A DNA stretch of 38,643 nucleotides, taken from an uncultured Lentisphaerota bacterium (GTDB taxonomy: Bacteria > Verrucomicrobiota > Lentisphaeria > Oligosphaerales > CAITYL01). Below, one piece after another: positions 167 to 23,920 of this stretch (positions are counted from its first letter, which is position 1; the number at the start of each line of letters is the position of its first letter). The notes below the pieces were generated by a model that saw only the letters and a program-made list of their open reading frames with translations, was not told the origin of the DNA and searched no databases. The DNA is taken from NCBI GenBank assembly GCA_903896595.1, contig CAITYL010000338.1, forward strand, positions 1 to 38,643, given 5' to 3'. A program made the position numbers and the translations under genes.

Positions 167-1747
167 TCAACCGTCGGCGAAGCGCACCTGGACTTTGCGG
201 CCGTTCCACAGCGGGGCATCGTCCAGTAGCCGGGCGCGCAGGGATTCGATTAGGCGTTTGGCGTAGTTGCGCATGGTTCCGTAAAGTCGGGCGAAGGTGC
301 CGCGGACATCATCGGCCAGCGTGGCGAGCAGGTCGGTGAGGCTCACCAGGTTGTTGAGCAGTTGGGCCACCTGCAGGAGCAAGTAGTAGTTTTTCCAGGC
401 GTTGCCGCCCAGGCCGTAACCGTGTTCCATCTCGTAGCCGCCGTTCTTTTGGGTGTTGAACCCTTCGTTCTCGATTTTCCAGCGCAGCCGTCCATGCAGC
501 GCCAGGGAGAGGGCGTTTTTCTGGTTCGGTTTGAGGTTGGTAATCCAGGTGTTGTGGTAGGTAACCACGCCGCCAGCCGTGGCTTCGGTAAGGTCGATGA
601 CATGGTAAGTCTCCCGGTGATAGGTGACCGGGGTCTTCCAACAAACCCGGTGCGTCCCCTTCTCTGCTTGGCCTTTAATGGCGGCAAACACCGTGCGTGT
701 CCCGCTCCACATCCCGTCACCGGCGGGGAGTTGGGCGGTCACGGTGGGTAGCTTCTTGTCCTTGAGTGTGATCAGGAAATCCCACCCCAGTTCTTCGCAA
801 CGGCGGAACGTCTCCTCCTCCGCGAACAGACCGTCCCCCACCAACGCGATCTTCAATCGGGGATAGAGCCGGTGGATCTTCTCGATGAGCCGGCGGGACG
901 CCTTCAGCTCACAGTCCTGCTTGTCGAATTCCGCCAGCTCCATCGGGTTCTCGATAAACTCGAAGGCGAACGGCACGACCAGACCACAGGCGGTGATGAT
1001 CTTGGCCGCCAGGACATAATGCGAATAAGTGGTCTTGCCATCTTTCGTCTGGGTAAGCCACCCGCTACCAGTCGGATGCCCGACCCGCATCACCTGCACC
1101 CCGTCCATCGCCACCACCAAGTTGCCGTCCAGTAGGAACCGCCGCAACATCTTGCGTTCCCGCAATCGGCCGGCCATGAGGACGATGAGGCGTTCGATCC
1201 CCGCCGGATCGAGCCCTTCCATGACCTGGTTCATCGTATCCGTATGGCAAACCACTTCGCACGTCTTGCCGGCCAGTTTCCACACGTTCGCGGACAGCCG
1301 TGACCCCGTCAGTTCGCGCCCCAGTTGCCGGCGCGACCCGCACTGGCCGCCCAGCATGAGCAACCCCAGCAGCAGCAAATAATCCAGCGGAAACGTCGCC
1401 CGCTCGGGACGTTTCCGTGGATCCACCATCTCCCGCAACCACTTCAGGAAATCGGGGTAGATGTCCCGGGCGTGCCGCCAGGCGTCGCCGGCGTCGATGC
1501 CGCGCGCCGCCGGTTGCGGGCGGCGCCCCGGCTTGCCTTGACGAAGATCCGGATGGCCTCCTCCCCGAGTTCCGAAATCTCCCGCAGCAACACCTTCAAC
1601 CGCTTGTACTCCGCCGCCCATCGCGCCACTTCCTCCACCATGTCCCGCGGCACATGCACCGTGACCGTTTTCCCCCGCTCCTTGCGCGTCAGCACCCACG
1701 CCTCGTGGCGTTCGCCACTGGCGCACTTGCAGTTCGGGTTGCCGCAC
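167..1747 (-). CDS. DDE transposase catalytic segment (IS4/IS5 superfamily, DDE_Tnp_1-like). The meaningful reading begins near 1500; the Gly/Ala-rich first ~85 aa of the track ORF are out-of-frame overlap with orfA. A frameshift is implied, either programmed or a pseudogene.
   Basis: Conserved C-terminal HGRLRWKIENEGFNTQKNGGYEMEHGYG (the RWxIE/YREK-like block of IS4-superfamily transposases) and acidic residues in DGLFAEEE and LVGDG. The frame overlaps orfA between 1444 and 1747. Confidence 0.6.
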   Translation of the reverse strand: MRQPELQVRQWRTPRGVGADAQGAGENGHGACAAGHGGGSGAMGGGVQAVEGVAAGDFGTRGGGHPDLRQGKPGRRPQPAARGIDAGDAWRHARDIYPDFLKWLREMVDPRKRPERATFPLDYLLLLGLLMLGGQCGSRRQLGRELTGSRLSANVWKLAGKTCEVVCHTDTMNQVMEGLDPAGIERLIVLMAGRLRERKMLRRFLLDGNLVVAMDGVQVMRVGHPTGSGWLTQTKDGKTTYSHYVLAAKIITACGLVVPFAFEFIENPMELAEFDKQDCELKASRRLIEKIHRLYPRLKIALVGDGLFAEEETFRRCEELGWDFLITLKDKKLPTVTAQLPAGDGMWSGTRTVFAAIKGQAEKGTHRVCWKTPVTYHRETYHVIDLTEATAGGVVTYHNTWITNLKPNQKNALSLALHGRLRWKIENEGFNTQKNGGYEMEHGYGLGGNAWKNYYLLLQVAQLLNNLVSLTDLLATLADDVRGTFARLYGTMRNYAKRLIESLRARLLDDAPLWNGRKVQVRFADG

Positions 1748-2466: not shown

Positions 2467-5187
2467 ATGATCAAGCAGACTGAAGCGGTGTTCCATGGAT
2501 TTCGCAAGCGCAATGGCATGATGGTGCCGTTTTGCCGGGAAAAGATCGAGGCGGCGGTGGCCAAGGCGGCGGATGTGGTGTTCCGGAAGGATGGCACGGT
2601 GGTCGGGTCCGACCTGCCGGAGCGCATCACCAACGGGGTGATTGAACAACTGGACGATTTGGGCAGCGAGTACTATGTCGCCCCGGATTCCAAGGGCCAG
2701 CGCATTCCCAAGATTGAGGATGTGCAGGATTTGGTGGAGATCGCCCTGATTGACGGCGGGTATTCGGCCATCGCCAGCGTGTACAAACGCTATCGGAAGC
2801 AGCGCGAGAAAGCCCGGACCCGCATCCATGTGCGCAACCGGTCGGGGGCGGAGGTGGATGTGACCGACGCCAGCCTGTTGCTGGTTCAGTCCACGACCGG
2901 CAATCTGACGCACCCGTGGAACCGGCAAAAGATCGTTGAGCAGTTGCAGAACGAGACCGACCTGTCCATCGAGGTCGCCAACAGTGTCGCCAAGTCGATC
3001 GAAAACCATGTTATCACCGGCGATTATCAGACCATCAACACCACGCTGATCCGGGAGATGGTCAACAATGAGTTGGTTGAGCGCGGCTTCCATACGCAAC
3101 TGCGCGACTTGTCGGTCTATGGCATCTCGAAGAGCTATGTCGAGAGTTTGATGTTCACCAAGTCGACCGAGAATTCCAATATTGTCAACAACAATCCCGA
3201 AGCGGTGAACTTGGGGTTGGCCGAGCTGGTGCTCAAGCAATGGGCGCTGGACACCATCTTTTCTCCCGAGGTCAAGCGCGCCCATGACACGGGCGCCATT
3301 CACCTGCACGACCTGGGCTATCCGCACCGGGTGTACTGCTCCTCGCACTCAATCGAGTATGTGAAGAAATATGGGTTGTGCGGCCTGTCCAACCTGAACA
3401 CCGAGAGCCGGCCCGCCCGCAGCGCCTCGGTGCTCACCGGGCATCTCAACACCTTTCTGGCCTCCATGCAGGCCAATTATGCCGGCGCCCTGGGGATTGC
3501 CTACATCAACATCTTCTATGCCCCCTATCTGGTGGGCATGGGCGCGAAACAGCTCAAGCAAGTCGCCCAGGAACTGATCTTTAATGGATCCCAAAACGCC
3601 TTCTCCCGTGGCGGCCAGACGCTGTTCCTTGACTTCAACATCCACACCGGGGTGCCGCGCTATCTGAAAGCCGTTCCCGCCATCGGGCCCGGCGGTCACT
3701 ACCAGTTGCGCCTGGCCGATGGCCGCATCGTGGAGTTGGAGGAACAGCTCCGCGACGACACCGACTCCGGCGGCAACGCGTTGATGAACTTGTGTTATCT
3801 CGATCCCGAGCAGGGGCCGCGCCTGGTTCTGCGCGAACTGCCTGACGCCACTCACGGCATCGTTTATGACCCGCAGGTCGCGGCAGACCTCCACGCCCGT
3901 GGCGAAAAGATGGTCACCTATGGCGACTACATCGCGGAAGCCCGCAACTTCACCCGGGCCCTGCTCGACGTGTGGCAGGACGGCGACCGGCACGGCCGGG
4001 TCTTCGAGTTCCCCAAGTGCGACTTCCATGTCAGCGATGAGACATTCAGTGACCCCGAGCAGTACGCCATCTTCATCAAGGCGTGCGAACTCGCCAGTCA
4101 CAACGGCTCCACGTATTTCATTTTTGATCGTGACGAGGTGACCCTTTCGGCCTGCTGCCGTCTGCGCACCACCATCAGTGACAACCGGATGCTCCGCCAT
4201 CCCGAGAACATGCGCTTCTGCGGGTTCCAGAACGTTACCATCAACATTCCCCAAGCCGCTTTCCGCGCCGCCCGCAACGGCAAGAACGGACTGGACGGTC
4301 TGTTTGAAGAGTTGGACCGCACCATGGATTTGGTGGTCGAAGCCCACTTGCAGAAGAAAGAAAAAATCTCGGTCATGATGTCCGGTCCCGGCCGGCCCTT
4401 GTGGCAGATCGGGCAGACGGCCAATGACGGCAAACCGTATGTGGACCTGGAGAAGTGCACCTACATCATTGGCCTGATCGGCCTCAATGACGCCATCAAC
4501 TTCATTCTCAAGCAGGAGTTGCACCAGACCGATGAGGCAATGGACATTGGCCTGCGCATTATTGCCCACATGTATCTGCGCACCAAAAAATTATCGAAGA
4601 AACACGGCCTCAAGTTCACTCTGGAGGAGTCGCCCGCCGAGAGTGCCGCCCGCCGCCTGGCCAAGACCGATCTTACCTTCTTCAAGGAAGAGGCGGCGCA
4701 GGTGATCAAGGGCGAGACGACGGATGTGGCCTTCTACACGAATTCCGTCCATCTGGCCGCCGACGCCCCGGTCAATTTGGTCGAGCGGATCCGGTTGCAG
4801 AGCATGTATCACAGCCTGATCGAGTCCGGCGCCATCATTCACGCCTTTATCGGTGAAGAACGGCCCGGCGCCGAATCCATTGCCGCCTTGATCACCGATG
4901 TCTTCCACCGCACCCAGGCGGCCCAGGTGACCGTCTCCCCCGAGTTCACCTACTGCAACAGCTGCCAGTTCATCGACCGTGGCATCAAGAGTGCCTGCGG
5001 CAAGTGTGGTTCCGACAATGTGGTGGGCGAAACCCGTGTGGTGGGTTATTTCAGCAAGATTCAGAACTGGAACAAATCCAAGCGGTTCGGCGAACTTCCC
5101 GCCCGTCAGCGCGGCAATTATGCCGTCATTGCCGGCGAGGACGCCATGGTCGAGGAAGCCGCCGCCCCGGTCCCCGCCGCCACCTGA
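2467..5187 (+). CDS. nrdD: Anaerobic (class III) ribonucleoside-triphosphate reductase with an N-terminal ATP-cone.
   Basis: N-terminal ATP-cone-like VFHGFRKRNGMMVPFCREKIEAAV, an internal CCRL loop, a C-terminal Cys4 zinc ribbon (CNSCQ...CGKCG) and the glycyl-radical motif TRVVGYFSK at the extreme C-terminus. RBS gaggga. Confidence 0.85.
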   Translation: MIKQTEAVFHGFRKRNGMMVPFCREKIEAAVAKAADVVFRKDGTVVGSDLPERITNGVIEQLDDLGSEYYVAPDSKGQRIPKIEDVQDLVEIALIDGGYSAIASVYKRYRKQREKARTRIHVRNRSGAEVDVTDASLLLVQSTTGNLTHPWNRQKIVEQLQNETDLSIEVANSVAKSIENHVITGDYQTINTTLIREMVNNELVERGFHTQLRDLSVYGISKSYVESLMFTKSTENSNIVNNNPEAVNLGLAELVLKQWALDTIFSPEVKRAHDTGAIHLHDLGYPHRVYCSSHSIEYVKKYGLCGLSNLNTESRPARSASVLTGHLNTFLASMQANYAGALGIAYINIFYAPYLVGMGAKQLKQVAQELIFNGSQNAFSRGGQTLFLDFNIHTGVPRYLKAVPAIGPGGHYQLRLADGRIVELEEQLRDDTDSGGNALMNLCYLDPEQGPRLVLRELPDATHGIVYDPQVAADLHARGEKMVTYGDYIAEARNFTRALLDVWQDGDRHGRVFEFPKCDFHVSDETFSDPEQYAIFIKACELASHNGSTYFIFDRDEVTLSACCRLRTTISDNRMLRHPENMRFCGFQNVTINIPQAAFRAARNGKNGLDGLFEELDRTMDLVVEAHLQKKEKISVMMSGPGRPLWQIGQTANDGKPYVDLEKCTYIIGLIGLNDAINFILKQELHQTDEAMDIGLRIIAHMYLRTKKLSKKHGLKFTLEESPAESAARRLAKTDLTFFKEEAAQVIKGETTDVAFYTNSVHLAADAPVNLVERIRLQSMYHSLIESGAIIHAFIGEERPGAESIAALITDVFHRTQAAQVTVSPEFTYCNSCQFIDRGIKSACGKCGSDNVVGETRVVGYFSKIQNWNKSKRFGELPARQRGNYAVIAGEDAMVEEAAAPVPAAT

Positions 5188-8797: not shown

Positions 8798-12331
<3,534 letters not shown>

Positions 12332-12797
12332 GATCCAGGCTCCTTGTGGGGGATGGGTAATGAGGGAAAAGGTGGGTTGTGAATTTTTTAACGGATCAGA
12401 TTAACATATAGCGTGGCGCCCGTTTTTCAACCGCGAAACCGCGGTCCACGCGGGCCGCGCTGGAACCTCAGACATCCTGACCTGATATGAATTGGGCTTG
12501 GCACCATCCGACCCCATTCGAGTGGGATGATCGAGCGCGAGCGCGAGCGCGAAAAAACCAAAACCAATCGGCACTTCGCGCTCAGCGTAGCGGCGCTCGC
12601 GCGTCGCCGTCGAATCCGTCACCTTTCCCCAAGCCTGTAAAGAACCCATGGAACCCGATAGCCCAACAAATACCCATACGGTCACCAAACCGCTGAACTG
12701 GTATCGTACGTCTCTGGGTCAATAAGTTCCCCGCCGCTTGGAATGGGGGGTCGGAAAACCTAATCGGCTCCCACCAGCGCATTCATTCCTAAAACCA

Positions 12798-12836
12798 AAC
12801 CGCTTGGAAATTTTCTACATTTCCAGCGGTTTTATG
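12798..12836. terminator. Hairpin with a U-tract at the left island border.
   Basis: aaccgcttggaaat-tttctac-atttccagcggtt followed by ttttatgg. Confidence 0.35.
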
Positions 12837-12885
12837 GCTTGTGCAACGGGTTTTGGCGCACTATTTTTCATGCTTCACATGAAAT

Positions 12886-12931
12886 ACTGACAGGAATTTT
12901 GATTTCAGGGATTGGGTCGGGCGGGGGAAAT
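12886..12931 (+). repeat. Island repeat family D, copy R1.
   Basis: actgacaggAATTTTGATTTCAGGGATTGGGTCGGGCGGGGGaaat. The same ~50-nt core recurs at 13706, 22380 and 23229, all on the same strand. Confidence 0.6.
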
Positions 12932-12982
12932 TTGGCTGATCGCTTTCGTGCAAGCTACACAAGTGAATTTGAGAATTGTTGA

Positions 12983-13615
12983 ATGATAAAAAGTTTGCAT
13001 CAAAATACCACAAGGGAAAAAATGAAAAAATTAAAGACACCCAAACTCCCAGAATCGATAACGGAACTGAACGAGACGCAGGCTAAGTGTCTGTCTTATC
13101 TCTATGATGAGTCAGATCGTGGTTGCGTGCTTGTTGCGAGTGGACTCATCGATGTGGCACTTGAGAGTTTATTCAAAGTTAAGTTGTTCCCAACGAAACT
13201 TAGCCAAGACAATGAGAACGCCATATTCAGCCCCATGGGTCCCTTGGGTGCGTTTTCGGCAAGAATCAAATTGGCCTATGCTCTGGGTTATGTCACCAAG
13301 ATTATCCATGACGATCTGAATTTGATACGTGCGCTTCGGAACTATTGCGCCCACAGTTACGTTGGGCCAGATTTTGATGATAACGAGTTTGCTCTGAAAG
13401 TTTCAGCCATTCAGACTGGAAAAACGATCTACAACTCCGTTATCGCTCAATTTCCATGCACCGAGAATTCAGCGTCTGACAGCTTGAATGACGTTGATGG
13501 AAGAGAGTTCTTGCCATCACGATTTCAATTCATGATATGCGCAGCCGAGATCGCGCACCAGATATTAGATCTTATACGCACGTCGGCTACTGAACACAAT
13601 GTTCAGCCGACATGA
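12983..13615 (+). CDS. HEPN-like protein (Rx4H motif; MtlR/DUF4145/Abi-like branch). The start may instead be the internal ATG at 13022.
   Basis: LIRALRNYCAHSYVG carries the R-x4-H HEPN signature. The gene is AT-rich (island composition); agggaaaaa RBS before 13022. Confidence 0.5.
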   Translation: MIKSLHQNTTREKMKKLKTPKLPESITELNETQAKCLSYLYDESDRGCVLVASGLIDVALESLFKVKLFPTKLSQDNENAIFSPMGPLGAFSARIKLAYALGYVTKIIHDDLNLIRALRNYCAHSYVGPDFDDNEFALKVSAIQTGKTIYNSVIAQFPCTENSASDSLNDVDGREFLPSRFQFMICAAEIAHQILDLIRTSATEHNVQPT

Positions 13616-13705
13616 CATAAGAACCTGATTTCCATGCCGACATTTTCTTGCAAAGGTCTTCAGGCGAACGGGGCGATGGCGGTGGGGCGGATTGATACGC
13701 CGGGG

Positions 13706-13756
13706 ACTGATAGAAATTTTAATTTCCTGGATTGGGTCGGGCGGGGGGAATAAACG
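13706..13756 (+). repeat. Island repeat family D, copy R2.
   Basis: actgatagaAATTTTAATTTCCTGGATTGGGTCGGGCGGGGGGAATAAACG. Confidence 0.6.
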
Positions 13757-13782
13757 CAAATCATGCTATCACATTGGTATGG

Positions 13783-14157
13783 CTAGTCTTCCAGAATTCC
13801 CACTCGGACAACGGCTTCACCAAGAATAAGCATCAATTCCAAATCAGGGGGTTGTTCGTATTCCGTTTCACTCAGTTTGGCCCGTGGTACTCGAAGATAT
13901 TTTCCCTCAGATCGACCAGTCACATACTGGCCAACATAAGTTTTGGAAGCGGCAAATTTTTGGCACCTTTTCCCCTTCATTTTAGTGCAGCTTAACGCTT
14001 CAGGGATTTTTATACAGCCATAGTTTTCGGGATGGCACGTAAAAATATCCAATTCTTCTTTGTCCAAGTAACGCCACCAGCATTCGTTTTCTGGGGTGTT
14101 AATTGAGAATTGTTTGTCCGTTGGTAGTGTTTTTCTTTTTACTGATAATGCTGACAT
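13783..14157 (-). CDS. Hypothetical Cys/Trp-rich small protein.
   Basis: 124-aa ORF, AT-rich, no recognisable motif. Confidence 0.45.
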   Translation of the reverse strand: MSALSVKRKTLPTDKQFSINTPENECWWRYLDKEELDIFTCHPENYGCIKIPEALSCTKMKGKRCQKFAASKTYVGQYVTGRSEGKYLRVPRAKLSETEYEQPPDLELMLILGEAVVRVGILED

Positions 14158-14803
14158 ATATATCCCTGTCGTTAGCCAAATGAAAGGGCTCAGTTTTGAG
14201 CCATCTCAGTTGGCACAGTTTTGGGCCATGAGGGTGCCCATTTGATGCTTCGCGTTTTGCTTCTCCCGACTTCATAACAAAAATCGGATTCTTCTGTTTT
14301 CTTGCTTATCTTCTTCCCCTCTTCACCGGTCATGGAGTTGCCAGTTTTGCACAAAACCGATCCAATACAGCTTGCTTAAATCGCATGCGAAGCCTGCCAT
14401 GGAGTGCGTTGAGGATCACCACCATGGTTTTGGGCGCTGGAAGCGCCCCTCCTGGACGGAAAACACGGTCAGGACAACGAAAGGCGGCTCCGCCGCCAAC
14501 CAAGGCGGCATTCCATGCCGCACTCCAAGGCGCGTATCATCCCATAAAAACGGTCAAAAATTTCACCCCAATGGCTGGGCACTCGAATGGCTAAAACGGT
14601 GCCAATCCCATGGCTCAAATCTGAGACTTTTGAGAGGATCGCCACACCCCAACGGTGGGAAATCTAGCGCTATCCCCACAAATCCCCCATAATGCCCCAG
14701 TATTCCCGCACTCCTCATTTAAAGCCGCTTTAGCTATCACAATACACCCTTATCCCTACGCCCTCGCATTTGGTTCCTAAAAGACAAGTTTGATACAAAT
14801 TGT

Positions 14804-15448
14804 TTACAACCCCCATTCGCGAAGAGGTATACTCGTGCCGTTTGGTTTATCCGGGCCAGGCTGATCCGGGTACCGTGCGTTTTGGCCCTCAGACCACATC
14901 ACCCGCAAGAAATCGTGATCGTACTCATCGAGATACTGCCCCCGCGCCCAGTTGTGGAGACGGTCGATGAGTGTTTTTGCAGCGGTCGTGTCGCCACCTC
15001 CGGTGCCTTTCCACTTGAGTATCTCAATGGTGGCGTGCGTCATTGCCTCAGCCATTACTTTTATTCGGGGACCAAAGACGAGGTCGGGTCCCGTTTCTCG
15101 CCCGAATATGTGCATGATCCCTGGATAACCACCATCGCAAGAATAGAAGACAAACGTACAGGCATTCGGTAGTTTTCCTCTAAGGAGGTGCGCAAGATCA
15201 TGCCAACGCACAGGGTTTTCCCATACATTGAACCCCATTAACGAACCGTGACCATGCCCACCGACAATAAGCACATTTAGGGACGTCTTGTCGAGAGCCA
15301 GTAAATGTGTTTTTAACTCATCCGGTGTCGTCACCTCATGCACGGTTAGATTCTGATTATTTTGGTCGCCCCATAAATTCAATTCCCGCCGTAAAGGTAG
15401 TTCTGCGGCATCGTTGGGAGGAAAACAACTCACATAATGAATTTTCAT
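14804..15448 (-). CDS. Small caspase-like (clan CD fold) cysteine peptidase candidate; last gene of the six-gene operon.
   Basis: A hydrophobic strand then His-Gly (NVLIVGGHGHG, His65/His67) and a second hydrophobic strand then Cys (TFVFYSCDGG, Cys104). The His-Cys spacing of about 38 aa is as in caspases and legumains. Strong RBS aggaga; 18 nt after the upstream gene. Confidence 0.45.
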   Translation of the reverse strand: MKIHYVSCFPPNDAAELPLRRELNLWGDQNNQNLTVHEVTTPDELKTHLLALDKTSLNVLIVGGHGHGSLMGFNVWENPVRWHDLAHLLRGKLPNACTFVFYSCDGGYPGIMHIFGRETGPDLVFGPRIKVMAEAMTHATIEILKWKGTGGGDTTAAKTLIDRLHNWARGQYLDEYDHDFLRVMWSEGQNARYPDQPGPDKPNGTSIPLREWGL

Positions 15449-15466
15449 GGCATCTCCTAATCTGGA

Positions 15467-16753
15467 TTATTGAGGCACAAGTTCACCATCCTTGAATTGG
15501 CCAACTTCCGTCGTTCCGTCCGGTGACGTCACTGTCACTTGGCCGTTGAGCTTGTCATCCTTCCATTCGCCGGCGCATTTCGTCCCGTCCGGTAACGTCC
15601 TTATTCCTTGACCATTGGCCATGCCGTGTTTGAATTCACCACCGTGTTTGGTTCCGTCCGATAACGTCAAGGTTCCGTGTCCATGCATCTTACCCTCCTT
15701 CCATTCACCGACGTACCCCATCCCGTTAGGAAGCGTCGTAGTTCCCTGGCCATTCCTCATGCCGTCCTTCCATTCACCGACGTATTTCTGCCCGTCCGAA
15801 AAAATGATCGTTCCCTGGCCATGCATCGTGCCATCCTTCCATTCACCAACGTACTCCTCTCCGTCAGGAAGCGTCGTTTTTCCCTGGCCATTCCTCATGC
15901 CGTCCTTCCATTCACCGACATACTTCGTTCCGTTCGGGAACGTCATGGTTCCCTGGCCATTGGGCTTGTAATCCTTCCATTCACCGACGTACACCTTCCC
16001 ATCAGAAAGTGTCATCGTTCCTTGGCCATTTTTCATCATATCCTTCCGCACACCGACAAAAAATTTTGACCAATTATGAATTGTGCCCAATAACATCAAA
16101 ACGCAAATGACAACAGTACAAAACCTAAGAATCCAGTTCCATTTCTTAAGTGTCCCATCCGTATTCGTCTTCTTGGTGTACACATTTCCCGTGATAACTA
16201 TAATGGAGGGGAATATCATGGCAAGAAATGCTAATGGCATTCCTACAAGCTGAAACGGGAAGTCGCCGGAATAAAAAAGGGCGGGGATACAAGGGAACAA
16301 TACCCAAAAAATAAAGCACAACAGTGCAAAGACATTGTGGGATTCAGCTCGTCGGCTCCATGGAACCTCATTATAATTGTAGTAGTTATTTTTACCGGAT
16401 ACTGGCACCGCACCACTTTGAAGCTTCTGGCCAGAAAGAAAGTTCCGCCCGCACATGGTACACAACACGGCGTCCGACTTGGCTGCGGCACCGCAAGACG
16501 GGCAGGTCTTTGTGCCACCGGACGCTACAGACGGATGGGACACGCCCGTGATCTTGAACTTGGGCTTAATCGCCTCTGGCGGCTTTTCCGGAACCAAGTT
16601 TTCAATATTGCGAGCGGCGGTCCATTCCGTCAGATCTTCTGTCCAGACCAGTGTGTCGGCGTTTAGCCCGTCGGTTTCAAGCAGGTGAACCAATTCATCT
16701 TCGCTAATCGGCCCCTGTTTCTCACCACCTTTTTCATAGTACCATGTCCGCAT
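15467..16753 (-). CDS. DUF4339 + zinc-ribbon + multi-TM + C-terminal MORN-repeat protein.
   Basis: N-terminus MRTWYYEKGGEKQGPISEDELVHL (DUF4339-like), CPSCGAAAKSDAVLCTMCGRNF zinc ribbon, 3-4 hydrophobic helices, then at least 7 MORN repeats (YVGEWKDGxxxGxGT). RBS gaaggga. Confidence 0.8.
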   Translation of the reverse strand: MRTWYYEKGGEKQGPISEDELVHLLETDGLNADTLVWTEDLTEWTAARNIENLVPEKPPEAIKPKFKITGVSHPSVASGGTKTCPSCGAAAKSDAVLCTMCGRNFLSGQKLQSGAVPVSGKNNYYNYNEVPWSRRAESHNVFALLCFIFWVLFPCIPALFYSGDFPFQLVGMPLAFLAMIFPSIIVITGNVYTKKTNTDGTLKKWNWILRFCTVVICVLMLLGTIHNWSKFFVGVRKDMMKNGQGTMTLSDGKVYVGEWKDYKPNGQGTMTFPNGTKYVGEWKDGMRNGQGKTTLPDGEEYVGEWKDGTMHGQGTIIFSDGQKYVGEWKDGMRNGQGTTTLPNGMGYVGEWKEGKMHGHGTLTLSDGTKHGGEFKHGMANGQGIRTLPDGTKCAGEWKDDKLNGQVTVTSPDGTTEVGQFKDGELVPQ

Positions 16754-16790
16754 ATTAGTTCCCTTCCATCAAACACCGTTGTTTTCATCA
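16545..16790. repeat. Copy 1 of an ~250-bp near-identical segmental duplication (5' ends of two DUF4339 paralogs plus their leaders).
   Basis: More than 90% identical to 17425-17674 over the gene start, RBS and about 40 nt of leader. Confidence 0.7.
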
Positions 16791-16847
16791 TAAACGCATC
16801 AAGTTTACGCTTCGCATGTCGTATGCAATAAAGGCACATGCAGTTGT

Positions 16848-17636
16848 CTACATCGTTTTTTTCTTCTCTTTCTTCCAAACATTCATCAGGACATTAAGGA
16901 ATGTCTCGCCCTGGTTAAGAGGCGCGATCTCTATCTTAATTGTTTTGCCGGCGATCGAGGTTATTTCGATGACATCTCCCGTTAGCATTCCGTTGCGGTG
17001 ACGGATGTTCTCGATATCGGAGATATTGATGGAGTCATTATTACCGTCCTTATGGTAGATGATACGTTTTGTCGACAGAATCGCGGCTTCTGTTCCATTG
17101 AGCGACACTGTCACGTCGTAATAGGCGAGAATATCCTCGGAATTATCAAGAATCTTGTTATCCATAATGTACTTAGTAGCATATGATTCCATGCTGTTTG
17201 GAAGTTGGACTCCGCTTTCGGGATATTCGGGGCCGAAAAATAGCCACACCACCCCGACGACTACGGCAATCGTCAAGATCAATATCAGCGTTCCACATCC
17301 TACTAATAGAAATTTTAATTTCAGGCGCCGGATTTGGAGGGGGGACGAAATAGCATCCGATTTAACCTCAGCATCGCAGGATGGGCAAATATTTGTGTTA
17401 GCAACAACCGCCGACGGAGGGGGCACGTCTGGAATCTTGAACTGGGGCGTTATCTTCTGTGGCGGCTTTTCCGGAACCAAATTTTCAATATTGCGAGCGG
17501 CGGTCCATTCCGTCAGCTCTTCTGTCCAGACCAGTGTGTCGGCGTTTAGCCCGTCGATTTCAAACATGTGAACCAATTCATCTTCGCTAACCGGCCCCTG
17601 TTTCTCACCACCTTTTTCATAGTACCATGTCCGCAT
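16848..17636 (-). CDS. DUF4339 + zinc-ribbon + TM protein, a paralog of 15467-16753 without MORN repeats.
   Basis: The first ~55 aa are near-identical to the neighbouring gene; CPSCDAEVKSD; one TM helix; the C-terminal domain is unassigned. Confidence 0.8.
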   Translation of the reverse strand: MRTWYYEKGGEKQGPVSEDELVHMFEIDGLNADTLVWTEELTEWTAARNIENLVPEKPPQKITPQFKIPDVPPPSAVVANTNICPSCDAEVKSDAISSPLQIRRLKLKFLLVGCGTLILILTIAVVVGVVWLFFGPEYPESGVQLPNSMESYATKYIMDNKILDNSEDILAYYDVTVSLNGTEAAILSTKRIIYHKDGNNDSINISDIENIRHRNGMLTGDVIEITSIAGKTIKIEIAPLNQGETFLNVLMNVWKKEKKKTM

Positions 17637-17674
17637 ATTAGTTCCCTATTCATCAAACGCCGTTGTTTTCATGA
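17425..17674. repeat. Copy 2 of the ~250-bp duplication.
   Basis: See copy 1. Confidence 0.7.
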
Positions 17675-17681
17675 ACTGGTT

Positions 17682-20480
17682 TCATTGTTTTTCTCCGACG
17701 TACTTGTCATTCCTCCATATCCCGTCCTTACTTTCAGAGCCATCAGCGGCGATTATCTTTCCACGGCCATGAAATTTGTCGTCTTGAAATTCTCCAACGT
17801 ATTTTTTCTTTCCATCCCACGATGTCAACGTCCCATTCCCATTAAATTGGCCATTTCTAAATTCACCAACATACATCTTTCCATCCGGAAACATCTTTTC
17901 TCCCAGGCCACTGAAATTGCCGTCCTCGAACTTGCCGACATATTTCTGTCCGTCCGGTGACGTCATCGTTCCTTGGCCATTTGGCAAACCATTTTTAAAC
18001 TCGCCAACGACTTTTATTCCGTTGGGGAAACTCAATGTTCCTTGGCCATTGAGTTTGTTATCCTTGAATTCACCAACGCATTTTGTTCCATCTACTAATG
18101 TTTTTGTCGCTTGGCCACAGCAGATGCTGTCTTTGAATTCCCCAATGTACGTCGTTCCTTCCCGCGTGGTCAATGTTCCTTGACCATTAACTAATCCGTT
18201 TTTAAATTGACCAACGTATTTATCTCCTTCGGGCGTAATCAATGTTCCTTGACTAGACCGTCCGTCCTTAAATTCACCAATGTATTTTCTTCCATCTTTA
18301 AAAGTGAATGTTCCATGGCCATTCATTTTGCCGTTTTTCCATTTTCCGACGTATATTCCGTCGTCCTGATAAATCATTGCTTTGATCTCATTAAACTTGG
18401 CCAAGGCAGCCGCATAAGCGTTCTTGCCTTCCTGGTACCGGGAGGAATGGCTGACGCACTCCTCGCCGAGCTGTTTTTGTGACTCCACTTCCGCCCATTT
18501 TTCGCCCCCCCCCTGGCTGAACGTCACAAGATCTGCCTCTTTCAATACGCTCTCAAACGCCTGCCGCGCTTTCCAATACTCCAAAAACTTGGCCGCCGGT
18601 TCCCATTTCGGTGCCAGTGTTATCGAGATACGTGCAACCTCCTCATAGTTTTTTGTACTCAAAGCGTTCCGATAGTCCGATTTCTGTTTCATCCGAATGC
18701 CGAGACTGCATCCGCCCCAGATCACAAGAATACCAACTCCCGCCCATGCACAGCGCTTGAAGGTCAGATACGACATCAGTGATATTGTGGGTTTAGCGTC
18801 CATGGGACTAGTCCCAGCGCTGTTATGTGGCACAGCCACCATGGTTCCAGTAAAACCGAGGAGCACTTTAGCCGTCCGATCTGCAAAATTATCCCATTTA
18901 CCCAGTAGCTCGATATTATCGTTCAGCTTATTCTGGTCGGCAGCCTCCTTTATGCTTTTACGTATTTCCTCAATGGTTGTGGTGGGATAAAGGGCTTCAA
19001 GCGCCTGCCGCACCGGTACGGGGGCGTTTAGCCAAAGTCGTGACAGGAACGCAAGACGATTATAGATAAATGATTTCCATGGGATTCCATCCGGAGACAA
19101 CCAACCTACAGTAATTACAACAATCAAAACCCCAAGCCATGAAAAAATGAACGTTAGTATTCTACTGCCGGCCAAAAATTGCTGGGTATCGTCTCCAAAT
19201 AACGCACAAAATGGGGCAAATATCGTACGAAGAAGGAAGTTAATTTCAGCACCTTCACCGTTTAAATAATAACCAATCGATAAAAAAAGTGCGATGACTG
19301 CATATGCGAACCAGATCCAAAAGTATATTCCATTAAGGGTATCAATTTGTTTTTGTTTCTGCCAGGCTAGCGCAGCTTCATTGGCTACAGCCGACACATC
19401 CAAAGGAAAATCCCCGGAGATGTTGCCATTCTGCAGATTTACAAAATGACGGAAATCGGAACCTTCCACGGCGTATCTCACAACGGCAAATGGAAGATAT
19501 ATCAGCGTGAAAGAACGAGACTGTAACTGTGGACTTACATGCCTGAGCCGACACACACAAGGCTCGCTTGCTTTTCGCGCCATGTCATCCAAAATCGATT
19601 GCGACCAAATTTTTTTCTGGGAGATCGAAGGCGATGTAATAGAGAAGCCTGTATCAGTACGGGGGGGATCACTGGGGTTAGCCTCGGCATCAAACCCGTC
19701 CTTTACCACTTTGACTTGCACATCTGAGAGGCCGTGCGCCGCAGGAAATCCGACGGTCTCGTCGAAACATGCCTGTCCTGAACTCGGCGTCCAAACAGTC
19801 CTGGTTTTTTGAACCGGCTCGTTTGTCTCATAGCTGCGCCCATCCACATTTTTGGTGACTTTTTGCCATTCAGTGTAGGTCTCTTCGTGAGGATTATCTC
19901 CTGTCCATGCGCAAGTCCCCTTAACGCAAATCTTCCAGAAGGGAAAAAAAACGCCTTTTATGTCCATCGCCAACGCATCGGTGTTCTTTAGCCCACATTC
20001 GTCCTTTTGGATGGTATCGATTATCCGATTCCGGACATCCTGAAGCGATAAGGCCGGTTCGATGTAGCCAATGTCCAGTGTCGGCCCGTTGAGATCCAGG
20101 AGCGATGCGTCACGCGTCTTGGGTGTATGCACCATGCTCTTGCTGCCACAGAAAAGGCAACTGGCGATTTCTTCATCACGACGCAAATCCAATTGCGCAC
20201 CGCAGCTTTTACACGCAGCCACTTCCAGAACTGACGAAGGCGGAGCAGCGGGGGATTTAGGTGCCCCCATGAAGACTTGTGATTTGGGTAATGGCGGTGG
20301 TTGCGCTGTGCGCGCGGACGGTTTTGGCAAGGGCGGTGGTTGCGGGGGCGCATGCGGTTTTACGCTTGGAACAACAATGGGTTGCTGACAGGAAGGACAC
20401 TCAACGGTCGTCCCCCTGTCGGAGTCATCGACTTGCAGGTTTTGCCCACAGTGAGCGCAAAAGAATTTTAAATTTCCCAT
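17682..20480 (-). CDS. Large (932 aa) protein with double zinc ribbons, a Pro-rich segment, multi-TM region and C-terminal MORN repeats.
   Basis: CAHCGQNL...CPSCQQ and CKSCGAQL...CLFCGS ribbons, a PPQPPPLPKP linker, hydrophobic helices at about 400-470, and about 10 MORN repeats at the C-terminus. RBS ggggga. Confidence 0.8.
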   Translation of the reverse strand: MGNLKFFCAHCGQNLQVDDSDRGTTVECPSCQQPIVVPSVKPHAPPQPPPLPKPSARTAQPPPLPKSQVFMGAPKSPAAPPSSVLEVAACKSCGAQLDLRRDEEIASCLFCGSKSMVHTPKTRDASLLDLNGPTLDIGYIEPALSLQDVRNRIIDTIQKDECGLKNTDALAMDIKGVFFPFWKICVKGTCAWTGDNPHEETYTEWQKVTKNVDGRSYETNEPVQKTRTVWTPSSGQACFDETVGFPAAHGLSDVQVKVVKDGFDAEANPSDPPRTDTGFSITSPSISQKKIWSQSILDDMARKASEPCVCRLRHVSPQLQSRSFTLIYLPFAVVRYAVEGSDFRHFVNLQNGNISGDFPLDVSAVANEAALAWQKQKQIDTLNGIYFWIWFAYAVIALFLSIGYYLNGEGAEINFLLRTIFAPFCALFGDDTQQFLAGSRILTFIFSWLGVLIVVITVGWLSPDGIPWKSFIYNRLAFLSRLWLNAPVPVRQALEALYPTTTIEEIRKSIKEAADQNKLNDNIELLGKWDNFADRTAKVLLGFTGTMVAVPHNSAGTSPMDAKPTISLMSYLTFKRCAWAGVGILVIWGGCSLGIRMKQKSDYRNALSTKNYEEVARISITLAPKWEPAAKFLEYWKARQAFESVLKEADLVTFSQGGGEKWAEVESQKQLGEECVSHSSRYQEGKNAYAAALAKFNEIKAMIYQDDGIYVGKWKNGKMNGHGTFTFKDGRKYIGEFKDGRSSQGTLITPEGDKYVGQFKNGLVNGQGTLTTREGTTYIGEFKDSICCGQATKTLVDGTKCVGEFKDNKLNGQGTLSFPNGIKVVGEFKNGLPNGQGTMTSPDGQKYVGKFEDGNFSGLGEKMFPDGKMYVGEFRNGQFNGNGTLTSWDGKKKYVGEFQDDKFHGRGKIIAADGSESKDGIWRNDKYVGEKQ

Positions 20481-20510: not shown

Positions 20511-20981
20511 TCAGCCCTTGCCGGGGTCGGTTTTTTCGGCATGCAGCACGCTGAACCCAAGAAGCAGCGCAGTGATGGCGCATCCGACGAAAAGGACGAT
20601 TTGGAGCACGAGATGAATCCGCTCCGGGAACCAGTGGTTCGGCAGGACGCTATCCAGCAGGAGCAGGATCACGCTCACCGCACAGTAGCCACAGACGCCG
20701 AGGGCGACACCGGGGACCAGGCGGGCCAGGCCCCAGCGGTCGTGCGTGACCGCAATCGCGCGCAGCCAGAACCCCTGGGCGCCCCAGAAGAACAGGGACA
20801 GGCACAACAACCAAAACATTTTGCCCCAGAAGAGACCAGTTCTCTCACCAGCAGCGGTCAACAACAGCGGAACCAGAATCGCGACCACGGCGGTCAGCAG
20901 GAACCCGGCCACGCACACCACCAGGCTGTAGCGTAACGCCGGTGCGGAACCGCTCGGACAGGTGGGCCGGTTAGATTCCAT
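20511..20981 (-). CDS. 4-TM membrane protein (NfeD/YqiJ-like partner position).
   Basis: Four hydrophobic helices; its start overlaps the SPFH gene stop by 11 nt. Confidence 0.7.
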   Translation of the reverse strand: MESNRPTCPSGSAPALRYSLVVCVAGFLLTAVVAILVPLLLTAAGERTGLFWGKMFWLLCLSLFFWGAQGFWLRAIAVTHDRWGLARLVPGVALGVCGYCAVSVILLLLDSVLPNHWFPERIHLVLQIVLFVGCAITALLLGFSVLHAEKTDPGKG

Positions 20982-21990
20982 TGAGAATCTCCTTCTTCTT
21001 GGCCTCGAATTCCTCTGGCGTGATCAACTGTGCCCCAAGCATGCGCTTGAGGGTGCCCAGCCGCGCCACGGGGTCGGCGGGCACCCCGCTGGTATCGTCG
21101 AGCGAAACATGGAGCGCCTCACCAACCTGTTTCCCCAACGGCACGCCGGCGCCGACGCCGATGCCGAGTCCGAGCCCACCGGCCAGCAAGCCGCCGGCGC
21201 TGCCGCCTTCGTTGGCCGCCGCCTTTTCCAAGGTGTCGAACGTGCGCATGGTGGTATAGGCGACGCCGACCTTGGCCTTGCTGATCTGATCGATCTCCAT
21301 GCGGCGGCCCAGCACATCCTGAAACCGCGTCATCTCCGCCTCGGGAATGCTGATCCGTTCCACGTTGAAGTTGATCACTTCAATGCCGAACCGGGCCAGT
21401 TCCGGGGCGATCTGCTTTGCCGTTTCGGCCGAAATTTCATTGAGGCGGGAGTTGATCTGAAATACGGAAATCTTCTGTTCGGCGAAAAAAGTCGCCAACA
21501 GGTCGGAAAACTTCTGGTGTATCTCCCCGGTGAAGTACTCCATGACCTTCGTGCTATCCGCGCCCGCAAGCGTTCCAACGATCTGAGCCACAAAAACCTG
21601 GGAGTCTTGAATCCGCAATCCCCAGCGACCATAGGCTCGCACGGAGATGGGAAAGTTGTATTCCGGGTCAATCAGGGGGATCGGGGTTTTGGTGCCCCAC
21701 TTGAGGTCGCGCTTGACCGTCTTGCTCACAAACCAGACTTCAGCCGTAAACGGGGTTTGGTTGCCAAACGGCAGGCTCACCAGCTTCCCGAGCAAGGGGA
21801 GATTGCCGGTGGAAAGCGTGTGTGTCCCGTTCGTGAAGAGGTCGAGGGCCTGACCGCCCTTGACGAAAATCACCTCCTGGGTGGGATGCACGATGAGTTG
21901 ACCACCAAGCTTTAAATCCTCGCTTGGATACTTCCAAACAAGTACCTCGTCGGATGGTGAGTCAAACTTGATTCTGTCGAGGAGAGCCAT
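20971..21990 (-). CDS. SPFH (band 7/flotillin-like) domain protein with C-terminal SHOCT domain.
   Basis: SPFH core plus C-terminal LGTLKRMLGAQLITPEEFEAKKKEIL (SHOCT-like). First gene of the operon. Confidence 0.8.
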   Translation of the reverse strand: MALLDRIKFDSPSDEVLVWKYPSEDLKLGGQLIVHPTQEVIFVKGGQALDLFTNGTHTLSTGNLPLLGKLVSLPFGNQTPFTAEVWFVSKTVKRDLKWGTKTPIPLIDPEYNFPISVRAYGRWGLRIQDSQVFVAQIVGTLAGADSTKVMEYFTGEIHQKFSDLLATFFAEQKISVFQINSRLNEISAETAKQIAPELARFGIEVINFNVERISIPEAEMTRFQDVLGRRMEIDQISKAKVGVAYTTMRTFDTLEKAAANEGGSAGGLLAGGLGLGIGVGAGVPLGKQVGEALHVSLDDTSGVPADPVARLGTLKRMLGAQLITPEEFEAKKKEILNGI

Positions 21991-22199: not shown

Positions 22200-22379
22200 A
22201 GGGCGCGAACCCCAAGTTTGCGCCTCCACGGAAGGGCTAGCACACCCCGGAATGGAAACAACAAACGAGGGGAACGCGCCCAAGTGAGCGCGTCCCCTCG
22301 CAAGTCGCCGCTTCCATTCCATTGAAAAGTGCTAGTTTTCCGTGGAAACGTTGAATTGCGATGAACGCAAACCTATGAT

Positions 22380-22430
22380 ACTGATAAGAATTTTTATTTC
22401 ATGGATTGGGTCGGGCAGGGGTAATAAACG
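22380..22430 (+). repeat. Island repeat family D, copy R3.
   Basis: actgataagAATTTTTATTTCATGGATTGGGTCGGGCAGGGGTAATAAACG. Confidence 0.6.
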
Positions 22431-22521
22431 TATCGATTCTAGTCCCCAAAATATTCATAATCAATCCATGTTTTTCTTCTTCTTCGCCGTCATCCTTTTT
22501 GTTGTGATCCGTCATACTGAC

Positions 22522-23187
22522 CTAACTCAAACCGAAACACCGCAAGGCGTGTTCAGTCAATCCTCGCTGCCAATCGATATCTGAGCGGGAGACTGCGATC
22601 TCCGTGATCCTGATCCAATCGGGGCTACCGTAGTGCGCTTTAAGGCCGGGTATTCCGATCAGTGGCTTCAGAAAGTCAGTTGTATCGGCATCTTTGTCAA
22701 GCGATGTCCCGCCAAAGACCCTGGAAAACGACTTTAATAACATTTCGTACTGGCAATCCAACGGTGCATGTCCGTCGCCGTCCAACATAAGCAAGCACAG
22801 TCCAACAAACGTGGGATCATGATTCGCGTTATAAAGGTATGTCTCTACTTTGCGTGCAACCCGCATGGTCGTCTCATTCTTTCCGCACACATCCACTATA
22901 TATTTCTGCCCTTGATATTCCACCGCAACATCGGGGTGACTCCAATGCAAGTCGTCCGCACTGATGCAGGTCATTCTGGAGAAAAGGCCACGGGTGGGCA
23001 CGAGTGCCGCAAGAGCTAATTCTGGGGTGCGGGAAAAACTGAAAGACGATTCAAAGCCATGTTTCGTTCCCAGAGCGGCATGAATCGTTACGCCCTTGGC
23101 TGGAAGCGCGGCTCGCAACGCCAGTGCTACGCGAAGCACGCACTGATGATGAGTCATGGGATCGTTAGCCGTTTTGTGCTGATTCAA
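22522..23187 (-). CDS. Hypothetical protein (221 aa) forming its own cassette between repeat copies R3 and R4.
   Basis: ORF with island-like composition and no secure motif (weak PD...E.K-like stretch PDVAVEYQGQKYIVDVCGK). Confidence 0.5.
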   Translation of the reverse strand: MNQHKTANDPMTHHQCVLRVALALRAALPAKGVTIHAALGTKHGFESSFSFSRTPELALAALVPTRGLFSRMTCISADDLHWSHPDVAVEYQGQKYIVDVCGKNETTMRVARKVETYLYNANHDPTFVGLCLLMLDGDGHAPLDCQYEMLLKSFSRVFGGTSLDKDADTTDFLKPLIGIPGLKAHYGSPDWIRITEIAVSRSDIDWQRGLTEHALRCFGLS

Positions 23188-23228
23188 AATAACGCCTGTT
23201 TGTCGATCTTGATCGTTGAACCACTACG

Positions 23229-23280
23229 TCTGATAGGCATTTTGATTTCAGGGATTGGGTCGGGCGGGGGGAATAAAAAT
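23229..23280 (+). repeat. Island repeat family D, copy R4.
   Basis: tctgataggcATTTTGATTTCAGGGATTGGGTCGGGCGGGGGGAATAAAAAT. Confidence 0.6.
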
Positions 23281-23342
23281 TTATAGGTAATTTGAATTTT
23301 AATGCTTATTGGATTGTTCCGGTGGTGGAACCCGTAAAGAAA

Positions 23343-23588
23343 CTATCTGATAATTTTTAGTCTGCGGAAATCCTCTTCTCCCCATCCAATATCAACAAAT
23401 AGTGCCTTTAGCAATTTTGGCCCGTAGGTTTTTCCAGGGTGGAAGTGAACACTCACGCGCCGTCCGGATTTATAAAATAACTGCTGGGAACCGCCTCGTT
23501 GCTCACAAACCCAGCCATCACGGACAAGAGCCCGGATTAATTCATCCGCGCTTATGCTTTTGAGTTGGTCCCAAACATTTTTATTCAT
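23343..23588 (-). CDS. hicA: HicA-family mRNA-interferase toxin.
   Basis: 81 aa; LIRALVRDGWVCEQRGGSQQLF...VSVHFHPGKTYGPKLLKALFVDIGW fits the HicA/YcfA fold pattern; ATGA overlap with hicB. Confidence 0.75.
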   Translation of the reverse strand: MNKNVWDQLKSISADELIRALVRDGWVCEQRGGSQQLFYKSGRRVSVHFHPGKTYGPKLLKALFVDIGWGEEDFRRLKIIR

Positions 23589-23920
23589 GCAAAAGCAGGG
23601 ACTTGAACATCTTCGGTAATGTAACGGATACGGTTTTTGGGTACATCATAGAAAACGTCCCGGCTTAAAACCGTACAACAGGGGATCGGTTCCCCATGCT
23701 CCATCATAGACAAGACATAAAGATTAATCGCATCACGGGCGTCCACCATGGCATCCTTGATGGTATCCCCGCAGGCATGCAACCCTTTAAAAACCGGGCA
23801 AAAAGCATGGTAACCATCACCATCTTTTTCAATGATAACCGGGACCGAGACGCGAAACATAATTTTATTTTTTTTCATATAACTGATACGGACTTTAGCA
23901 TGTCGGAATCCAGATGGCAA
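23585..23920 (-). CDS. hicB: HicB-family antitoxin. The start may be the internal ATG giving MKKNKIMF at about 23878.
   Basis: VIIEKDGDGYHAFCPVFKGLHACGDTIKDAMVDARDAINLYVLSMMEHGEPIP matches the HicB N-domain pattern; the stop overlaps the hicA start. Confidence 0.7.
   Translation of the reverse strand: MPSGFRHAKVRISYMKKNKIMFRVSVPVIIEKDGDGYHAFCPVFKGLHACGDTIKDAMVDARDAINLYVLSMMEHGEPIPCCTVLSRDVFYDVPKNRIRYITEDVQVPAFA

Follow-up and report, generated by a model that had tools for sequence, protein, structure and literature searches.

A short gene with His-Gly and Cys-x-Gly motifs

A single small gene is the subject of this analysis. It lies in a 38,643-nucleotide stretch of DNA (contig CAITYL010000338.1 from an uncultured Lentisphaerota bacterium), the whole of which we refer to as the window. 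The gene occupies 14804..15448 on the minus strand, runs from an ATG start to a stop codon at 14804-14806, and encodes a stand-alone protein of 214 amino acids (aa) that is very probably a stripped-down relative of caspases and CHAT proteases. The original prediction, made from the window alone, had proposed a mini caspase-like peptidase in this open reading frame (ORF), with His65, His67 and Cys104 as key residues. Translation and codons agree on these positions, and the strand, not given earlier, is minus.

Motif 1 (NVLIVGGHGHG, residues 58-68; 15245..15277, minus strand) comprises the predicted strand beta3 followed by the candidate catalytic His65, with codons for H65 at 15254-15256, G66 at 15251-15253, and H67 at 15248-15250. 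Motif 2 (TFVFYSCDGG, residues 98-107; 15128..15157, minus strand) comprises strand beta4 followed by the candidate nucleophile Cys104, with C104 encoded at 15137-15139 and G106 at 15131-15133. The spacing between them had been put at about 38 residues, and the distances are 39 from His65 and 37 from His67 to Cys104.

The predicted fold extends over residues 2-184, followed by a Pro-rich C-terminal tail (residues 185-214; 14807..14896, minus strand) delimited by conservation in the close subfamily and by model confidence. An 18-nt gap separates the ORF from the stop codon of the upstream gene (15467-15469), and within it the DNA reads AGGAG, a Shine-Dalgarno sequence 5 nt 5' of the ATG (15454..15458, minus strand). 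We found no transmembrane (TM)-like segment in the protein and its N-terminus does not resemble a signal peptide; its sequence points with good confidence to a soluble, cytoplasmic protein, as part of the overall interpretation given below.

Four columns are invariant across a rare family

In a word-indexed search of 5.8 billion proteins we found 25 homologues (E 1e-150 to 6e-46, 43-100% identity), nearly all of 182-228 residues and all annotated as "hypothetical", without a Pfam match. An exhaustive hidden Markov model (HMM) search of 1.84 billion cluster representatives recovered 44 proteins at E <= 1e-3, 27 of them at E <= 1e-10, and a third search with a broad alignment added no members. 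A set of 185,579 species-representative genomes yielded just three loci, in metagenome-assembled genomes of a Myxococcales, an Acidobacteriales and a "delta proteobacterium"; Sorangium sp. So ce1504 carries one further copy. The family is real, if rare. An origin in phages or plasmids was considered and is unsupported, with no homologue in IMG/VR, among INPHARED phages or in PLSDB plasmids.

Conservation was compared in the close subfamily, in 26 sequences, and in 45 relatives that included distant profile matches at 14-25% identity. Invariant positions in the close subfamily include H65, G66, S69, G72, W82, D84, S103, C104, and G106. Once distant relatives were added, only H65, G66, C104 and G106 remained invariant, in both the 26- and the 45-sequence alignment, the latter with a mean column identity of 23%. 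Judged from these alignments, this invariance is the signature expected of a His-Gly/Cys-x-Gly catalytic apparatus and is more than a chance pattern. His65 and His67 had both been put forward as catalytic candidates. His65 held up, while His67 is approximately 90% conserved in the close subfamily, is replaced by Asp in the relative P0010, and is not conserved beyond the close subfamily, so it does not belong to the proposed dyad.

The tail has the consensus W.EG...R[YH]P..P....P.G..I.LRGWGL. Every member of the close subfamily has W185, P194, I207 and W212, and P194 is at least 90% conserved across all 45 sequences; in distant subfamilies the tail is shortened or absent. Self-cleavage at the conserved "PLRGWGL" was considered and ruled out, as position 210 is alternately Arg or Leu.

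The predicted structure follows the caspase-hemoglobinase order

We modelled the protein with AlphaFold2 from a 25-sequence alignment, which gave a mean predicted local distance difference test (pLDDT) score of 92.9 and a predicted template modelling score of 0.91, with all five models at 86.7 or above. The elements of the first half are beta1 (2-7), alpha1 (17-30), beta2 (33-38), alpha2 (42-51), beta3 (57-63), and a hairpin (72-81). In the second half they are alpha3 (82-89), beta4 (98-102), a short helix (109-114), beta5 (123-127), alpha4 (133-148), alpha5 (154-171), and beta6 (181-184). In the model, this is the order of the caspase-hemoglobinase fold, a three-layer alpha/beta arrangement around a six-stranded sheet. 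The original prediction was to stand or fall with this fold, and the model has it.

Hydrophobic strands leading into the His and the Cys had also been anticipated. His65 and Cys104 each lie two residues beyond the ends of beta3 and beta4, a placement shared by His121 and Cys163 of caspase-3. The arrangement is that of MEROPS clan CD, with H65-G66 after beta3 and C104 after beta4, all conserved in the family. Fold equivalence with clan CD enzymes suggests that His65 and Cys104 are juxtaposed. Only 20 residues, including the short helix, separate Cys104 from beta5. The tail (185-214) has no regular secondary structure, yet it is placed confidently (pLDDT 83-91).

The fold comparison took in metacaspase-9, caspases 1, 8, 9 and 3, MALT1, C11 clostripain-like enzymes, TPR-CHAT, DdvA, gingipains, separase, GPI8, GSU0716, and DUF4347/Tce1. 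A Foldseek search of BFVD returned an uncharacterised Myoviridae protein as the best match (E 2.6e-7, TM-score 0.67), followed by giant-virus caspases. The top structural match was SAVED-CHAT, whose dyad, H375/C422, has been validated experimentally (10.1101/2023.06.23.546230).

Distant relatives connect the protein to CHAT

The 214-aa protein itself had no match in Pfam, NCBIfam, PADLOC or PHROGs, and its 45 relatives gave no match of note in NCBIfam or PADLOC (PADLOC-DB v2). When each relative was scanned singly, CHAT (PF12770) was the sole Pfam family matched by more than two of them. The relatives P0058, P0052 and P0047 scored 27.3 bits (E 3e-6), 21 bits and 13.8 bits, respectively, against a gathering threshold of 24 bits, and all three matches span the stretch with the His and Cys motifs. 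Since only remote relatives match PF12770, and the 214-aa protein does not at E <= 10, its kinship to CHAT is transitive and at the superfamily level.

Profile comparisons lent weight to this connection. A search with the profile of the protein's own subfamily (A1) recovered P0052 (E 1e-6) and P0058 (E 6e-5). P0052 seeds a family of approximately 200-aa proteins in 82 clusters, nine of which have a precomputed PF12770 match; one member is named "CHAT domain" by JGI. Aligned by hhalign, A1 and the profile of the P0052 family (A4) gave a probability of 97.8% and an E of 1.2e-12 over 154 columns, pairing VLIVGGHGH with IFHLSCHGD and FYSCNGG with SSCVGG, which places His65 on H73 and Cys104 on C111 of the P0052 family. 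A single hhalign alignment to human caspase-3, with a sequence verified against the Protein Data Bank (PDB), put H65 on His121 and C104 on Cys163; the register is right and the score non-significant (E 0.016, probability 2.8%). None of the 45 members matched Pfam Peptidase_C14, the Cys motif is YSC[DN]G rather than of the QACxG type, and there is no p20/p10 organisation.

The CHAT-positive sister family may have a partner gene. It is represented by P0066, which occurs on many contigs; at loci L026 and L027 (6001-7269) an unannotated 217-aa gene begins 4 nt after the 203-aa gene of this family. A gene pair encoding an AAA_15/AAA_23 ATPase and a Metallophos protein lies 3 kb from the P0066-type gene at these loci.

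Local context in the source organism

The gene lies in a compositionally foreign island of approximately 8 kb (12600..20450), with a GC content of 42-53% and a GC content at third codon positions (GC3) of 0.39-0.57. In addition to the 214-aa gene, the island holds three MORN/GYF genes, orf124, and a HEPN/MtlR-like gene. Host genes around it, encoding pyruvate:ferredoxin oxidoreductase, NrdD, an aldo-keto reductase, SPFH and MlaE proteins, have a GC3 of 0.75-0.92. The island is not marked off by a tRNA, an Rfam RNA or att-like repeats at its flanks, and promoter and terminator scans stayed at background level.

Directly upstream are three co-directional membrane-protein genes (15467..20480, minus strand), identified by Pfam matches and TM-like segments, which encode proteins of 428 aa (15467-16753), 262 aa (16848-17636), and 932 aa (17682-20480), the last of the zinc-ribbon/MORN type. 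The gaps going upstream from the 214-aa gene are 18, 94 and 45 nt, and the four genes are possibly co-transcribed. The three proteins are paralogous, with GYF_2 domains, zinc ribbons, TM segments and seven to eight MORN repeats (a 69-nt periodicity in the DNA). The 428-aa and 262-aa proteins have 72 of their first 100 residues in common (a 235-nt repeat at 92% identity), and PADLOC gave a weak match to BnzA for the 262-aa protein (E 1.7e-4).

Beyond the 932-aa gene, after a 30-nt gap, a gene for a 339-aa SPFH Band_7_1 and SHOCT protein overlaps by 11 nt one for a 156-aa protein with four TM-like segments (20511-21990, minus strand). This pair has a host-like GC3 of 0.75-0.79, which suggests that the island was inserted into a membrane-associated SPFH operon or added on to it. 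A second low-GC patch (22200-23800; 44-52% versus approximately 62%) contains a 221-aa ORF (22522-23187, minus strand) for which there was no Pfam match.

Downstream of the 214-aa gene, a stretch of 650 nt (14158-14803) has no convincing ORF and matched no Rfam family. It contains a 22-nt inverted repeat, whose arms (14183-14204 and 14610-14631) are 405 nt apart and 86% complementary, and, on the minus strand, two hairpins that resemble terminators (14497-14483 and 14202-14187). Past it lie orf124 and a convergent gene for a 210-aa MtlR/DUF4145/Abi_2-like protein (12983-13615, plus strand) with an RNYCAH motif (Rx4H, HEPN-type) and a match to phrog_22031 (E 1e-13). A 46-nt direct repeat flanks this gene (12886-12931 and 13706-13751); the two copies are 87% identical and lie 820 nt apart, and a third, weaker one is found at 17302-17347. 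Gene and flanking repeats together look like a small cassette inside the island. The backbone of the window, with a DDE transposase (167-1747, minus strand), the NrdD anaerobic ribonucleotide reductase (2467-5187, plus strand) and pyruvate:ferredoxin oxidoreductase (8798-12331, minus strand), points to an anaerobic, high-GC bacterium.

The family is a solitary, mobile gene

To search for partners, we took the ORFs lying up to 4 kb from the gene, with a minimum length of 50 aa, and compared them by all-against-all BLASTP, using 13 and then 15 independent loci. No neighbouring ORF was common to any two of the 15 loci, even at E 1e-3. With different neighbours at every locus, the family is a solitary, mobile gene.

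At L001 the neighbours include BREX PglZ, an SNF2 helicase and a pair of Hypoth_Ymh genes. Toxin-antitoxin genes are found at L004 (Sorangium), together with an integrase, and at L005, where they are of the PIN and ParE types. At L006 an AAA_15 ATPase lies 21 nt upstream and a Cap4 nuclease is close by, and L029 has a large serine recombinase. The locus of the closest homologue (L012, 70% identity) has an 871-aa SMC-like ATPase. Three other loci (L016, L020 and L023) have, respectively, a restriction endonuclease-like gene, a KAP-family P-loop NTPase that comes after a split homologue, and a TonB-dependent receptor. A weak Peptidase_C14 gene occurs at L028, and gyrB with a GGACT-like gene at L030.

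Two recurrent kinds of neighbour were tried as system partners and rejected: HEPN-type genes (MtlR-like in the window, Hypoth_Ymh at L001) and AAA_15/SMC-like ATPases (L006 and L012). In each case the genes are non-homologous and differ in distance and orientation, and we therefore take them as defence-island background rather than a system.

The original prediction had placed the gene at the end of a membrane-protein operon. Locally this description fits, given the common strand, the 18-nt gap, the AGGAG and the TM-like segments upstream. As a family feature it failed, as none of the other loci shows it; the same arrangement recurs only in contigs with an identical 214-aa protein, that is, in the same organism. 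The link is either a local accident or a lineage-specific recruitment.

A predicted single-domain cysteine endopeptidase

We propose that the gene encodes a single-domain cysteine endopeptidase of the caspase-hemoglobinase fold, nearest the CHAT branch of clan CD, an assignment that we consider probable and in which the activity is predicted. The invariant H65, G66, C104 and G106, the modelled fold, and the hhalign bridge to a CHAT-positive family bear out the peptidase reading. We take the fold, the family, the invariance and position of the two motifs, and the homology to CHAT-positive proteins as established by the model and the alignments.

By analogy with clan CD chemistry, Cys104 would act as the nucleophile and His65 as the general base, while the backbone NH groups of Gly66 and Cys104 would form the oxyanion hole. 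In caspase-3 this role falls to Gly122 and Cys163. Such an oxyanion hole would explain why the glycines are as conserved as the dyad. The layout is a bare catalytic core (beta1-alpha1-beta2-alpha2-beta3-His...alpha3-beta4-Cys...beta5-alpha4-alpha5-beta6) with the 30-residue tail, and there is no sensor domain, prodomain or long inter-subunit linker. With only 20 residues from Cys104 to beta5 there is no room for a caspase-type linker, so activation by linker cleavage is unlikely. Because the protein has no sensor domain, the enzyme would instead have to be restrained through oligomerisation, a trans-acting partner or substrate, or the tail.

Several results weigh against this interpretation. 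Pfam clan CD models did not match the protein even at E up to 10, and PDB sequence HMM searches, with the protein or with family profiles, gave only noise and no clan CD chain. Foldseek was far less decisive on the fold and found nothing in the PDB at E <= 1e-3; MALT1 led at E 6e-3, with caspases at ranks 4 and 37, interleaved with flavodoxin-like folds. One homologue (L020 2665-3303, contig SDBT01063268.1) is broken into two adjacent ORFs of 76 and 128 aa, either a frameshifted pseudogene or an assembly error. There is no conserved partner or substrate gene to support any specificity or mode of regulation.

The same Foldseek list, in which flavodoxins and FMN reductases mix with caspases at E ~1e-2, would suit a chance motif resemblance on a generic three-layer alpha/beta protein, flavodoxin- or universal stress protein-like and unrelated to proteases, as would a weak HMM match to the "GSHG" motif of universal stress proteins (E 0.048) in the PDB sequence search. 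Given the four invariant columns, we regard such a coincidence as scarcely credible. A catalytically inert scaffold that binds without cleaving, like c-FLIP or the N-terminal domain of Raptor, is very unlikely: pseudo-proteases of this kind typically lose the dyad, whereas here H65, G66, C104 and G106 are the sole invariant columns among 45 sequences. Another reaction by the same fold and Cys/His dyad is also quite unlikely, be it transpeptidation or ligation, as in GPI8 and asparaginyl ligases, isopeptide or amide hydrolysis, or purely autocatalytic self-cleavage.

The locus itself might suggest a four-gene module, with a dedicated processing or maturation protease whose GYF/zinc-ribbon/MORN neighbours are cleaved or serve as docking sites, for example by GYF_2 binding of the tail. 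The genes have the strand and foreign composition in common, the 214-aa gene follows after 18 nt with its own Shine-Dalgarno sequence, and other contigs of the organism show exactly this arrangement. The tail is proline-rich, and GYF domains are known to bind proline-rich peptides. Yet no other family locus has a MORN or GYF neighbour, no ORF is shared among the 15 loci, the closest homologue follows an SMC-like ATPase instead, and the tail is conserved in homologues without GYF neighbours. We consider such a module unlikely and, because of the tail's conservation where GYF neighbours are absent, retain GYF_2-tail binding as speculation only. It is likewise speculative that in the source organism the predicted protease also acts on, or is recruited by, the GYF/MORN membrane proteins.

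For the predicted endopeptidase, the most likely role, which we put forward as a weak suggestion and with low confidence, is in conflict between genomes, where it could serve as an effector of the defence or toxin-like kind or as a processing protease. The reason is that the family is a solitary gene moving between variable regions, with defence, toxin-antitoxin or recombinase genes as frequent neighbours, and that in the window it lies within a low-GC island. A defence role is countered by the heterogeneity of the neighbourhoods, some of them housekeeping regions (gyrB), and by the lack of any member in the phage and plasmid collections. Nor does the family belong to a known anti-phage system in PADLOC-DB v2, with no model matched by any of the 45 members and no conserved partner. 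A bolder idea, which we think improbable, is that the sensor-less CHAT core of 214 residues is a complete single-gene mobile module, an abortive-infection or toxin-type or counter-defence protease gated by its Pro-rich tail or by direct recognition of invader proteins. If true, no smaller autonomous caspase-type immune effector would be known, and CHAT regulation would gain a tractable minimal model.

Comparison with known proteases

Proteases of the caspase type (CHAT, orthocaspase) are emerging as executioners when bacteria defend themselves, as in the Craspase, SAVED-CHAT, gasdermin, and TIR-caspase systems. To our knowledge, all characterised examples are large and have sensor domains or obligate partners. 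The present family suggests that the catalytic core also occurs free-standing at approximately 215 residues, wholly overlooked by current annotation resources. It adds a family to clan CD and provides a very compact scaffold, modelled with confidence, on which to study how the bare fold is restrained. It also points to a candidate effector in regions, variable and rich in defence genes, of Myxococcota, Acidobacteriota, and bacteria related to them from soil and peat. Concepts would change only if the protein proved to have an autonomous immune or toxin function.

Known CHAT proteases, namely SAVED-CHAT of Haliangium ochraceum (PDB 8tl0), TPR-CHAT/Csx29 of the type III-E Craspase, DdvA, and HetF, have 480-900 residues, against 214 here. 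They carry a SAVED, TPR or transmembrane sensor and have a defined partner or substrate (cA3, gRAMP/Csx30, a sigma factor), whereas the protein described here has no extra domain and no conserved neighbour and falls below the Pfam CHAT model. The P0052-like "mini-CHAT" family (approximately 200 aa, 82 clusters, some with PF12770) has the same size and single-domain architecture, and the two families share a C-terminal motif, "F.YRRW....RYP" corresponding to "FLRVMW....RYP". They differ in that identity is approximately 20%, the motifs are SCHGD and SSCVGG rather than GGHGH and YSCNGG, and the P0052-like family lacks the long Pro-rich "P.G..IPLRGWGL" tail and is much commoner.

Compared with caspases, metacaspases and orthocaspases (Peptidase_C14, MEROPS C14), the protein has no p20/p10 linker and no Ca2+-binding or prodomain elements, has YSC[DN]G in place of the QACxG pentapeptide, and aligns with caspase-3 only non-significantly. 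Like CHAT, separase and gingipain, it would need no linker cleavage. No sequence relationship was detected with the DUF4347/type VI secretion effector Tce1 (PDB 9qpe_G, 178 aa), an Hcp-borne secreted effector, and no type VI secretion genes lie near the family at the loci examined. The family is best described as new and rare within a known superfamily, a bare catalytic core with neither sensor nor conserved partner, and is thus a modest extension of a well-known enzyme class rather than a new kind of system.
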